From Alphaproteobacteria bacterium (GTDB taxonomy: Bacteria; Pseudomonadota; Alphaproteobacteria; MPNO01; UBA830), in assembly GCA_964291215.2 (NCBI GenBank), contig OZ219791.1:2240001-2304000 (forward strand): 64,000 nucleotides of DNA, read 5' to 3'. Made by a program: the position numbers and the translations under genes. Each line of letters begins with the position of its first letter. Position 1 is the first letter of the stretch. Positions 7,268-47,833 of this stretch are shown piece by piece. The notes beneath the pieces are model-generated. The model saw only the letters and a program-made list of their open reading frames with translations. It was not told where the DNA came from and did not search any database.

Positions 7268-8956
7268 CAGGACTTTCCCACGCTGCATTCGATCTTGCCG
7301 ATTGCTGATGGAGGGAGGCTGCCCAGCCTGTCGGGTTTTCTGGCTTTGGGGCCGTCCGCGGTCGCCGCCGGCGGCGTTATCGGCGCGTGGGCGGGTTATT
7401 TTCGGGATGTAGGCGGGTTGTGGGCGGCGTCCGGGAATCGGCCGGACGCCATTGGCGCTCAGGGCCGCGTCAGAGCTGCGACGGCTTCTCGGCGGTCGAG
7501 CCGCCGCCGTGTTTCGGCGAGGCTCTCGCGTCGGTTGGCGAAGATCACCGCGAGCACGATGTTGTTGAGGCTGGCGCGGTTTGCGGGTCAGGCAGGCGTC
7601 TTCGCCGAAGACGCAGTCTCGGTGGTTCATGTTTTCCACGGCCCGCGGCCGCAGCAGTTCCTCTGGCGACGCGTGTTGCGCATCGAGCGAGGTGATGATG
7701 TACAGTCGTTGCCGCTCGCTGCGCCGCTGGCGCTCTTTCCCAGCGGTTCGCGGCAGCGCTTGATGCGGGCGATCTGGCCGGGGTAGTTGATCAAGCCCTT
7801 GAGCGGCACGCGCTGCTCGAGGCGGGCCTTACTCTTCCTTGAAGCGGCCGCTGGCTCCCAGTCGATGCCGTCGAGGATGTCGAAGGTTTCGGGCGCATTG
7901 CCTTTGACCGAGAAGACATAGTCTGCGCCGCAGCGCCGGGTGATCAGCGCCGCCGGCGTCGTGCGGGTGGTCACCTTGCCGCGGACATCGGTGCGCTCGA
8001 GGAGGTGGCCGCCAGCTCGCCGTCGTCGAAATTCAACAGCGCGAAGGGTGCGCCGGAGGCGTGAGAGCCACGGTCTCGTGGTGGCCGTCGCCGTTAGCGC
8101 CGCGGATGCGCTTGCCGTCGGCGGCAAGCGCTCGGGCGAGCCCGCGGCCGAGCACATCCTCGAGCGCCTCGGGGTCGATTGACTGCCCTGTGGAGGGTCG
8201 CCTTGGAGGGCGGCTCGCGCAGCTCCGTCCTCGGGTTCCGCCGATGGCCTCGAGCTCGTCCTGAGACAGCGACCGCGCAAACTGCGCAGCTGCCTTTCAT
8301 GTTCGCAAGCTCGGCGAGAACGTGAGCACACCGTGTGCTTCCTGCGCGGCGGAAGTCCTCGATCGCCGCCAACTCTTCGTGCAGCAAACGCATCACCTCG
8401 GAACCCCGGGGAGCGAGGAGGCAGGCGGCGCCACCGCAGCGCCTGCGACAGCAGCCGTCGCGCCGCACAACGAAAATCTCCTTACCATGGGGGTCGGTGT
8501 AGCGCCCGCGGGCAAACCCCTTGGCACGCCAGCCCGCCGCCTTGTGCCCGCAAAACGCGCCGGATCGCAGAACGTCTCTGCCACAACCACCTAGTGGCCG
8601 TAGGCCCAGTCGTCAGCCAGCCGCCGCGTCGCAAGAAAGAAGGAGGCAAGGTTCGGAAACGTTCCCGGCGCCGCACACACTAGCAGTCGCGTGTTGTCAG
8701 ATCAAGCCACTGCTGCTCCGGCTTCCAGCCACCGGTCGCGGCACTTGAAGGCCCCGGCCAGACCACTGCCCCCTGAAGGACGCAATATAGCGCAGCCCCG
8801 CCAGACGGCGAAACCCGAGATAGTCGTCCATCAACGCAGCGGACGCTCCTTAGGCTTCGCGAACCTCAACCTTATATGACCAGGTTTTGTCCCCTTGATG
8901 ATGAAATCATCCACAGCAGTTGGGGCGGGAAAATGTGGATCTGTGGGAGAGCTATG
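7268..8956 (-). mobile_element. Degenerate ISAs1-family element with upstream DUF4338-like region (copy 1)
   Basis: Frameshifted fragments DFRRA, ADYVFSVKGNAPETF and NHRDCVFGEDAC; upstream YLGFRRLAG/LRYIASF, GAFKC, ETFCDPARFAGT; imperfect ends caggactttcccac (7268) and catagctctcccac (8956, minus strand). Confidence 0.75.
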
Positions 8957-8959
8957 GTT

Positions 8960-9910
8960 GCAGAGAGATTCCGCTCCCCTGAGCGAACACGCACAGGGGA
9001 TCAAACGATCTCCGCGGAGGTTGCCGTTTTGACCTTGACAGAGCCGCGACCGAGTGTGGTCGGCCAACCTCCCTTGACGTCCCTCGCTGGATGCTTGGGT
9101 TTGAACCTGTATCATCGTAAGGCGAGGAGCAAGGGACGATGGTCAAGATAGTAGCAGGGGTCAGCCAGTCTGGACATCTGGCGCATTGTTTTGCGAACGA
9201 CGCCACGGGCAGGTGGCTTCGCGGCCTCGGGGTGAGCCGGGTGGTGGGCGACAGGCCGCTATCACCGCAAGGTTCACCAGTGTCTTCATGACCGGGGCTT
9301 CGAGGTTATTCTCGTCAACCCGTTGCGGGCGCTTCGCCGAGGCGATGGGCCATCTGGCCAAAACCGACCGCGTCAACGCCAAGATCGGCTGGGCGATCTT
9401 GAGCCTGTGGCTCCGCCTTCCTCAAGAGCCTGGAGGATCTCTTGGTGCCGCGCTTGTCGACGCCAAGCAGGTGGCAGATGAGGTGGATGGCGAGACCGTC
9501 ACAAGGGCCTCGGCGGCCGATCTCAATGATCGCATTGCCGGCGCGGCGATCAAAGCGGTGATCGCCGGTGATCCCGAGCAGAGGTACGCCATCCTGACCT
9601 CGATCCCCGGTCCGGTGACCGCCGCGGCCCTTCTGGATGCCCGAACTCGGCAGCGTCGGCAGCCTTGATCGGGGTGGCGCCGATGGCCAACGACCACGGT
9701 GCTCGGCACATCCGTGGCGGGCGCCGAAGGCCACGCGATCTCCTGTTCATGGCCGCAACCTCGGCGGCACGCTTCAATGCGAACCTGGTGCGCCTCAAGA
9801 CTGCCGGCAAGCAAGGTCGCGATTGTCGCCGTGATGCGCAAGCTCTGGCGAACACCCTGCTGCGACAGCAGCGTTGCCTGAAGCACCGGTGAGTGAGCGA
9901 AGGAGACACG
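8960..9910 (+). mobile_element. Degenerate IS110-family element (structured 5' non-coding end plus transposase pseudogene from 9139)
   Basis: Fragments [52 protein letters not shown]; many frameshifts; ends approximate. Confidence 0.8.
8965..9138 (+). ncRNA. Candidate IS110 bridge-RNA-like non-coding region
   Basis: Three stems seen by eye: gagat/atctc enclosing cccctg..cagggg; ggaggttg/caacctcc enclosing cgacc/ggtcg; gtccct/agggac. Lies directly upstream of the IS110 start codon. Confidence 0.45.
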
Positions 9911-10312
9911 GCCCTCACCCCTGCCGAGAGCGCGATCGGGACTGTCTCGACAGTCTCCCTCTACGACACGACTTGGGGAGAATGTCTGCAGATCATCGTC
10001 GAGGCCGACATCGAGGAGACCGAACCGCCTTGGGACACCTGGACCCGGACGGTCACGTTACCATGCCCGGGGACGGCAAGGTAGCCGCGTTCACGTGACC
10101 AATGGACGGCAACCCGCCGCCGGGACCACAAGCTTCATGTCGCCTCGCTCGCAGAGCAAATCCCACACCGCTTGTGGACAACCACAGAAAACATCACCGC
10201 AGACACCCGCAAAAACCTTGCCAGGAAACATGGATGCTCGGACAGACCCTTCCGGAGCTGCGATGTGAATCGGACAGGATACGATGTGCTTGTGAACCGA
10301 CATCCCCGCACC

Positions 10313-46593: not shown

Positions 46594-47437
46594 GGTCGTC
46601 TATGAAGCGCAGGTTTTCGTGTTTCACGAGACGTTCGTGCAGGTTGTGCGCGTCGGACTTGCGTCCACGTTTTCCTTTCGTCGGGATGTCGGGCAGTTCC
46701 CTGGCGCCCTGATGGTGCGGTAGCGCCTGCGCCCGGCGTCGTTCAGGGTCTTGGATGCGCTCTTGTTGACCTTGTGGCAGACCTCGCGGAGCAGGCTCTT
46801 CATCAGTCGCGCGGTAGCCTCGACGACAAAGGTCAGTTCGCGCAGCAGGTGGCTGCCGCTGGTGGCTACACTGGCCCATGTACGAGGCCCAGGACGCCCT
46901 TGTAGCACGGGCCGATCTCTTGCCCGCGCTTGCGGTGCGGGAACTTGCACGTCAGGATCCCACGACATGGAGCCACTTGCTGTTGATCCGAAATCGTCGA
47001 CATCGGGCGTTGCAGGAGGTGCGCCACGGCGGCCTCCTCCCATGACGCATCGTGAAAGCATAGCCGAGGCCTCGGAGAGCTTGATGCCGGAGATCGCCTG
47101 CACGAGCGCGACGGCGCAGGGACAGCATCTGGGCGACCAGCAGGTTGATGACGAGGGCTTGGATGCCGTACTGCACGGGATGTTGTCAGGGAACCGGCCC
47201 CGGGCCTTGCACTTCGGGCATTCCTCGGCGTCGACGCGGCGCTCGACGACCTCGAACACGATGTCGTGCGGCGCTCCCGATCGACGGGGCCGTCGGCGCC
47301 GCAGGCATCGACCGCGACGGTCTCCTCGACGATGGTCTTGCGCAGGTTGTCGCCCATCTGCTGGTTCGGCTTCGGCACCTTGCCGGCAGCGCCGCGGTCT
47401 TGGCCGCTTCGAACTCCTTGCGCGCCGCCCGTCGCCA

Positions 47438-47582
47438 TCACCCGGCCTCGACGGTCATGATCGTCGCGAGCATCGCCTGGCGCTCGCCCGGCGGCATCTT
47501 CCGGTACTCCGCCTTGCGCTTCATCAGCGCGCCGCCTCCGATGGCACAGCCCGCTCGTCGCCTTCGATCCAAAGTAGCTCAC
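47438..47582 (-). pseudogene. Further-deleted DNA methyltransferase remnant in IS66 copy B
   Basis: SYFGSKATSGLC..GGGALMKRKAEYRKMPPGERQAMLATIMTVEAG*. Confidence 0.6.
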
Positions 47583-47833
47583 TGCCGGTCCCCGTCGTTC
47601 TCGATAACCACCACTAAACGAATCGACCTGCAGTGTCAAATCTCCACGAAAACCCGTTCGTTGCTCTACCCCGACATCAAGCCGGAACCAGGGGGTGAGC
47701 AGTTACTATATTACGTAGAAATCAAAGGGCGCGGCGAGTTTCCGGCGCCGCGGTAACCCGGGCTCGGACCGGCCGGAGTCCTTCGACCGAGGCGAATTTT
47801 CCATCCGCCGGGCATGGCTGTCCGCGGGACAGT

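Follow-up and report, generated by a model that had tools for sequence, protein, structure and literature searches.

A Mom-like DUF4338 domain on insertion sequences of unrelated transposase families: predicted active site, conservation and possible roles

Introduction

The Mom protein of phage Mu is described in PMC13219725 as a Gly-tRNA-dependent modifier of the N6 position of adenine, which requires R111 and S124, depends on H58, Y59, D149, R151 and Y159, and contains an essential helix-turn-helix (HTH)-like insertion at residues 175-209. The domain DUF4338 has already been termed a GNAT (Rakesh et al. 2024, PMC10853773), and Upf31, a protein of IncP-1beta plasmids, is reported to have given no methylation by restriction or by SMRT (single-molecule real-time) sequencing and to repress its own promoter (Elg et al. 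2025, PMC11997246). Here we analyse insertion sequences (ISs) that carry a DUF4338 domain, or a Dam-like gene related to Upf31, in a 64,000-nucleotide stretch of an alphaproteobacterial genome (the window; contig OZ219791.1, our C2, positions 2240001-2304000) and beyond it. The genome has 6.15 Mb in two contigs and is crowded with decayed mobile elements. All window copies of the elements that bear these putative modifiers are dead, and family labels were taken from better-preserved copies elsewhere in the genome, not from the window remnants alone.

Mom-like proteins were reportedly linked to diverse bacterial transposases by Iyer, Tahiliani, Rao and Aravind in 2009, and IS-borne Mom-like domains have probably been foreshadowed in print. 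A literature search that did not cover the 2009 and 2013 papers of Iyer et al. returned no account or experimental study of IS-borne DUF4338. The mapping of residues onto the 2026 Mom mechanism and the tests of selection are contributed here.

Results

The DUF4338 domain of these elements is predicted to be a Mom-like GNAT fold with a Mom-type active site. We used an AlphaFold2 model of an intact IS66-borne relative, rather than of a window copy, with a mean predicted local distance difference test score (pLDDT) of 89. The Mu Mom structure 8bv8 was the first match of this predicted model in both comparisons with the PDB, at an E-value of 2e-6 with Foldseek and, with VIA, at Z 14.8 and a root-mean-square deviation of 3.6 over 167 aligned residues, the next chain following at Z 12.7. 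Searched against viral models, it found a phage protein named Mom at rank 5. Rank 2 of the same list was a Faunusvirus protein (A0A3G4ZXG3), which had the highest query TM-score, 0.56, over 298 columns. At the level of families, there was a match to the PHROG 'Mom-like DNA modification protein' (E 7e-6), and the Pfam Mom family PF25680 matched four of 24 proteins (E 9e-6 to 9e-4; best 25.9 bits, under the cut-off of 27.1). No significant PDB entry was retrieved by sequence, whether the query was the Mom-like protein, a profile made from it or the Dam-like protein.

The residues on which Mom relies have near-invariant equivalents in 253 IS-borne domains gathered by similarity: H58 in 253, Y59 in 244, R111 in 253, S124 in 251, Y159 in 251 and an acidic residue for D149 in 230. 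Between families these domains are only about 25-57% identical. One IS4 lineage has HP in place of HY and a degenerate ET motif. The IS66 and IS4 forms bear an extra N-terminal helical part of about 100 amino acids, and an Atlas search with the N-terminal 95 amino acids returned unnamed clusters only.

In the better-preserved copies the domain is an integral part of the elements. The ISAs1-family transposase of copy L008 matches NF033564 at 90.8 bits (cut-off 70) and contains PF13808, that of the IS4-family copy L009 matches NF033590 at 178.7 bits (cut-off 160), and the IS66 family has an NF033517 transposase, GTAA-type terminal repeats and 8-bp target duplications. The domain opens the transposase reading frame of ISAs1 and IS4 as an N-terminal fusion; in IS66 it is a separate gene of about 295 amino acids behind the transposase, overlapping the transposase stop and lying inside the terminal repeats. 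The intact IS66 elements examined contain two long genes only, among open reading frames (ORFs) of at least 120 amino acids. Gene-bearing IS66 copies flanked by 8-bp duplications (L030, L031, L033, L068-L071) reach 100% identity to one another. An initial annotation, made from the letters of the window, had named these three families and described the domain as cargo inside their ends. The family assignments and the position within the ends hold in the better copies, but ISAs1 and IS4 encode domain and transposase in a single reading frame, so that it is no separate cargo there.

The partnership with unrelated transposase families, which the initial annotation had also put forward, extends over the genome. 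We found 213 domain loci by tblastn, 156 of which have the expected transposase within 900 bp, as against 1.2-3.5% of 1,500 random sites; counted on the expected side and within the same distance, the figures are 48 of 57 IS4-type, 84 of 106 ISAs1-type and 24 of 50 IS66-type loci. A query that had been built from fused domains retrieved 4,672 longer homologues, of which the 120 best are all transposase fusions (103 ISAs1-type and 17 IS4-type). When 41 further proteins were scanned, they proved to include a single fusion to an IS630 transposase, another subgroup of IS4 and C-terminal IS66 fusions, and the domain is fused to members of four transposase families. Most ISAs1 fusions (P0242-P0360) end at about 360-390 amino acids, past the PF13808 domain.

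The IS66 domain gene is under purifying selection: the ratio of nonsynonymous to synonymous substitution rates is 0.09-0.29 in 19 of 20 pairs, seven of the 20 sharing one sequence, and the remaining pair is too close to judge. In 17 IS4 fusions the domain is conserved like the transposase (66% vs 67.5%), and in three decayed families it is kept at roughly transposase depth, unlike the Dam-like gene. In the tree the domains of each IS family make up a clade of their own, at a great distance from the two true DruA proteins included, and Mom has a long branch whose placement is uninterpretable. An approximately unbiased (AU) test neither rejected nor showed a single clade for all IS66-linked domains (p 0.27). 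Since the DUF4338 copies are homologous and form one clade per IS family, they may be regarded as one module shared among families, and the tree fits old transfers of this module between them.

The domain is also widespread. Metagenome-assembled genomes (MAGs) with titles naming Alphaproteobacteria, Gammaproteobacteria, Thermodesulfobacteriota and Gemmatimonadota have IS66 versions that are 63-83% identical, an implication being that the gene has passed between hosts. Clustering of proteins at 90% identity gives more than 5,900 clusters for stand-alone and more than 4,600 for longer forms. A sample across the phylum gave a DruA match in 20 of 400 other genomes, which on our reading comprise nine with transposase fusions, six with long DruA-type proteins and five assigned to neither class. 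Among near relatives, three of four genomes of the genus and none of the 16 others searched have the domain. Only two of 72,556 plasmid records, a collection that leans to cultured hosts, match the Mom-like protein.

To judge from its profile matches, the IS-borne DUF4338 domain is not part of Druantia, in line with the initial annotation. The genome has 44 Pfam DruA matches, 34 of them over the cut-off and none full length, and 14 control genomes have none. The best reaches 128 bits over profile positions 46-226, as against 361.6 bits over 3-297 for a true DruA, and the best matches span about 45-227 of the 297 positions. With PADLOC models, IS-borne proteins score at most 26 bits and full DruA proteins 268-967 bits. 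Of the domains of the DruE helicase (DUF1998/MZB), MZB has a single match in the genome, some 29 kb away from the closest hit to Pfam DruA, DruB-D models not having been part of the search. A single-sequence model of a true DruA had a pLDDT of 34. One IS-borne protein (P0289) bears the NCBI name 'Druantia DruA', and such naming can inflate counts of defence systems. In other genomes, two full-length DruA genes (L094:200-1576 and L095:118-1329) stand directly behind a similar-looking gene, with a Pfam NurA match in L094; such a pair might be a system of nuclease and DruA that is distinct from classic Druantia.

In the window, four remnants were recovered at 26-109 bits with a profile built from IS-borne DUF4338 domains, as against at most 7 bits in ten random windows, a test that is partly circular because the profile includes copies from the same families. 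By this profile they lie at 8531-8704(-), 14982-15125(-), 20534-20695(+) and 22282-22680(-), two in ISAs1 elements and one each in IS66 and IS4 elements, as first annotated. When 103 stop-free window segments were scanned against Pfam, only 22447-22797, in the IS4 remnant, matched DruA unaided (E 6e-10); better-preserved copies of the remnant families are independent DruA matches. The host genes adjoining the elements are intact, so the damage to the latter looks like real decay rather than sequencing error. Repeat depths are about 30-80 for the ISAs1 family, 30-50 for IS66 family B, 10-20 for IS4 and about 190 for IS66 family D. Pairing of ends recovered few copies of the first three (three of ISAs1, two of IS4 and four of IS66 family B).

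Copy 1 of the ISAs1 family is a decayed domain-transposase fusion at 7268..10424(-), with repeat ends at 7268 and 10424. The fusion of L008 covers 7292-8968 and 10247-10390 by tblastn, the outermost 5' bases being missing, and the domain remnant at 8466..8896(-) is frameshifted (tblastn 102 bits; profile 45.5 bits). IS66 family B left a 3' fragment at 14596..15393(-), with right end GTAAGCGTTCG, identified by tblastn and by the profile (26 bits), in which a stand-alone Mom-like gene has decayed at 14816-15325(-). This remnant lacks the stretch with the conserved Arg and Ser, and its 'NN.R' (14906) falls downstream of the ET motif; the conserved NN.R is a different one. No transposase was found in this copy at 14596-15393; the IS66 transposase survives only in other copies, and in two of these it is accompanied by the domain, both element ends and a target duplication.

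The second ISAs1 copy, at 20131..25737(+), is also decayed and is split by a nested IS4 element; it has its domain remnant at 20477..20796(+) (tblastn 84 bits; profile 35 bits) and its transposase part at 24659-25713. The decayed IS4 element, at 20909..24649(-), was delimited by its junctions. It has ends CTTTCAA, a 9-bp target duplication GCGCAGGGC and fragments of PF02281 and PF01609, and it is 79-86% identical to L009, whose transposase gave the NF033590 match. Its domain at 22261..22757(-), N-terminal to the transposase, is the best preserved in the window (DruA E 6e-10; profile 109 bits; tblastn 223 bits). Copy 1 of IS66 family D, recognised by its junctions and PF03050 fragments, interrupts the IS4 element at 23045..24611(-) with an 8-bp target duplication GCCTCATG. 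The stretch 20131-25737 is thus a triple nest, in which ISAs1 holds IS4 and IS4 holds IS66 family D with both inner target duplications intact, and the nesting gives the order of the three insertions.

Family D carries the Dam-like gene. In copy 1 its remnant at 24285..24487(-) keeps the S-adenosylmethionine (SAM)-binding start and has lost the DPPY half; 24347-24484(-) shares 70% identity with the N-terminal 47 amino acids of an intact 218-amino-acid gene (L170) elsewhere in the genome, which has the SAM-binding motif GGGA followed by DPPY. The stop of the remnant overlaps the next start (TGATG at 24283-24287), and TTGACA stands upstream at 24539-24544. Copy 2, at 44821..47706(-) by repeat limits and junctions, has an 8-bp target duplication TATATTAC and a short remnant of the gene beginning near 47582(-). 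Both remnants start their element and neither has the DPPY half. What had been annotated as a methyltransferase gene coupled to an IS66 transposase is therefore a real gene with the overlap described, of which the window holds only copies without the DPPY half.

The intact gene rides a younger IS66 family of 2,357 bp, with eight unbroken full-length copies more than 99% identical and further interrupted ones. Its protein has 3,196 homologous clusters, matches phrog_56 (E 1.5e-20) and, far under the cut-off, TIGR00571 (E 1.7e-5), and is 43.4% identical to plasmid Upf31 over 215 of its 218 amino acids (E 1e-50). Eight upstream regions were examined; every one has a TTGAC box ahead of the gene, and a CATAG/CTATG-type palindrome stands between the promoter boxes in three of them (two clear, one imperfect), being absent in the window family; the Upf31-type CAGCATCG repeat occurs in none of the eight. 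Contigs from one RNA run cover relatives of this element, a kind of evidence that cannot show transcription. By analogy with Upf31, the family-D gene is probably a repressor of the element's own promoter.

Family D has about 180-225 copies in the genome, only 9-19 of which have the middle of the Dam-like gene, and 105 of 167 paired copies show an exact 8-bp duplication. Among 128 size-selected copies, one deletion junction is common to 77, and 55 of these have exact 8-bp duplications, so the element moved without the gene in cis. Two of the 128 have the complete gene, and a tree built to date the loss was uninformative. Several distinct deletion junctions occur in the gene; the commonest class, that of the 77 copies, runs to the gene's end, and another arose via an 11-bp direct repeat. 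Spread without the gene is what one would expect of a repressor, or of a function that is dispensable or acts in trans, and would be compatible with a role in transfer between hosts.

The window has further features. A decayed IS110-like element (8870..10241, +; PF02371 E 1e-4 and repeat limits), of about 65 genome copies by repeat depth, lies inside the 5' part of ISAs1 copy 1. A decayed group II intron (45061..46593, +; Rfam RF02005, 85.7 bits at 45096-45274), of about 60 copies by the same measure, lies inside family D copy 2. Long joint matches place this intron at the same site in many family-D copies, suggesting that it homes to the element or travelled with it. Short repeats of about 40-120 copies occur at 10455-10630, 40687-41198 and 56403-56583; the first of them has the right end of ISAs1 and may represent a miniature inverted-repeat transposable element (MITE). 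The C-terminal 110 amino acids of the ORF at 41435-41962(-) resemble by eye a small multidrug resistance (SMR)-type transporter, with no Pfam match at E 0.001.

Discussion

Our results suggest, as the best though still tentative reading, that the domain modifies adenine in the manner of Mom, in the vicinity of the element that encodes it. The predicted Mom-type GNAT domain shared by ISAs1, IS4, IS66 and at least one IS630 element would transfer an aminoacyl group to N6 of DNA adenine, with a charged tRNA as the presumed donor and DNA adenine as the presumed substrate. The tether to the transposase would keep the modification at or near the element, and the adenine mark might tune or protect the latter during transposition. 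The control of IS10 and IS50 ends by Dam offers an analogy. Put broadly, a large class of ISs would use a tethered, tRNA-dependent Mom-type enzyme to write hypermodified adenine on their own DNA or insertion site, and such a self-made epigenetic mark, passed among at least four unrelated DDE transposase families, would control or shield transposition; taken as a whole, this proposal falls somewhat short of an even chance.

A number of observations weigh against this reading. Enzyme activity is predicted, not demonstrated, for any copy of the domain, and both substrate and co-substrate of Mom are held in PMC13219725 to be unpredictable from structure. Other GNATs stand close behind Mom, at Z 12.7, the 27.1-bit cut-off of PF25680 is reached by none of the 24 proteins, and hhalign aligns the domain profile to Mom only weakly (probability 3%, E 0.014). 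The conservation counted in the 253 domains is inflated by the way they were gathered. Among these residues, the R111 equivalent was set by motif spacing and not by superposition, MAFFT having left R111 unaligned, and the possible counterpart of R151 is an Arg that is displaced C-terminally by one residue (229 of the 253). The HTH-like insertion of Mom is a gap in 11 of 11 IS-borne rows. In IS66 the gene is usually unfused, so the tether there is only presumed, and the retention of the domain at transposase depth is in part expected, because fusion makes its loss harder in two of the three families.

Local marking of the Mom type is nevertheless favoured over three other roles, the nearest of which starts from Mom's known function in anti-restriction (PMC7261163). 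Broad adenine modification of the donor replicon would allow element and vector to survive restriction, the Dam-like gene doing the same job in other IS66 lineages, which we consider possible but rather doubtful. Mu-like prophages are reported to have adenine methyltransferases without sequence specificity in place of mom at its locus (PMC3299994), the intact Dam-like protein retains GGGA and DPPY, and IS66 versions from MAGs of four bacterial groups share 63-83% identity. Yet matches on plasmids are rare, if in a collection biased to cultured hosts, Upf31, which bears DPPY and is 43% identical to the Dam-like gene, gave no methylation as reported in PMC11997246, and fusion to a transposase would suit local better than vector-wide action. 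The initial annotation had joined the two cargoes in one convergent 'armour' strategy; as stated, this is not supported in view of the placement of the Dam-like gene in the Upf31 family and the spread of family D after its loss.

An active GNAT might instead acylate tRNA or a protein, such as the transposase or a host factor, and serve as regulator or mild toxin. GNATs of many substrates score just below Mom, and a DUF4338 GNAT fused to DndF is seen in PMC10853773 as a possible protein-targeting co-effector. We think this unlikely, because both comparisons with the PDB put Mom at the top, the H/R/S/Y residues typical of Mom hardly vary and the intact IS66 elements, with their two long genes among the ORFs listed (at least 120 amino acids), have no evident antitoxin. 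It is more improbable that the domain is a non-catalytic, nucleic-acid-binding accessory, used to sense target or tRNA or to repress, as Upf31 appears to do with a methylase fold. Upf31 illustrates that kept catalytic motifs do not guarantee activity, and the IS4 lineage with HP for HY and a degenerate ET motif would fit, but Arg, Ser, His and Tyr are near invariant in spite of the low identity across families. Debris of Druantia, or neutral passengers, would be a far-fetched explanation. The Pfam name DruA invites it, as do PADLOC DruA matches in four of five IS-borne proteins (E 1e-6 to 7e-3); the gap between these scores and those of full DruA proteins, the part-profile Pfam matches, purifying selection and the linkage to transposases all speak against it.

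Only one enzyme that modifies DNA in a tRNA-dependent way has been characterised, and these proteins, if active, would be its relatives in cells, encoded by ISs. Simple transposons would gain a self-written DNA mark in their life cycle, and programmable fusion scaffolds would be on offer. The 2026 Mom mechanism makes the activity of the domain directly testable.

Of the described systems, Mom of phage Mu is like the IS-borne domain in predicted fold, in the kept equivalents of H58, Y59, R111, S124, D149 and Y159, and in being encoded by a mobile element. The domain differs in being about 15-20% identical to Mom, in having an RDxxIGW insertion of its own and no HTH-like insertion, and in being fused to or beside small IS transposases; it is known from sequence and model only. 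The Dam-like gene resembles Upf31 (PMC11997246) in keeping DPPY and in being the first gene behind its own promoter, and differs from it in sitting inside an IS66 element, upstream of the transposase. Druantia DruA (PF14236; PADLOC PDLC00001/2) has the Pfam family and the RDxxIGW region in common with the IS-borne domain, whose copies match only part of the profile and are distant in the tree; in an uncertain alignment, the Arg and Ser of the Mom type seem to be absent from two full DruA proteins. Finally, we take the IS66 elements to belong with those of ISBst12-like, single-transposase organisation and with passenger-carrying ISs. They have GTAA termini, 8-bp duplications and NF033517 transposases alike, with no tnpA or tnpB in the intact copies examined, and they differ from that IS66 grouping in having a Mom-like gene downstream, or an Upf31-like gene upstream, aboard.

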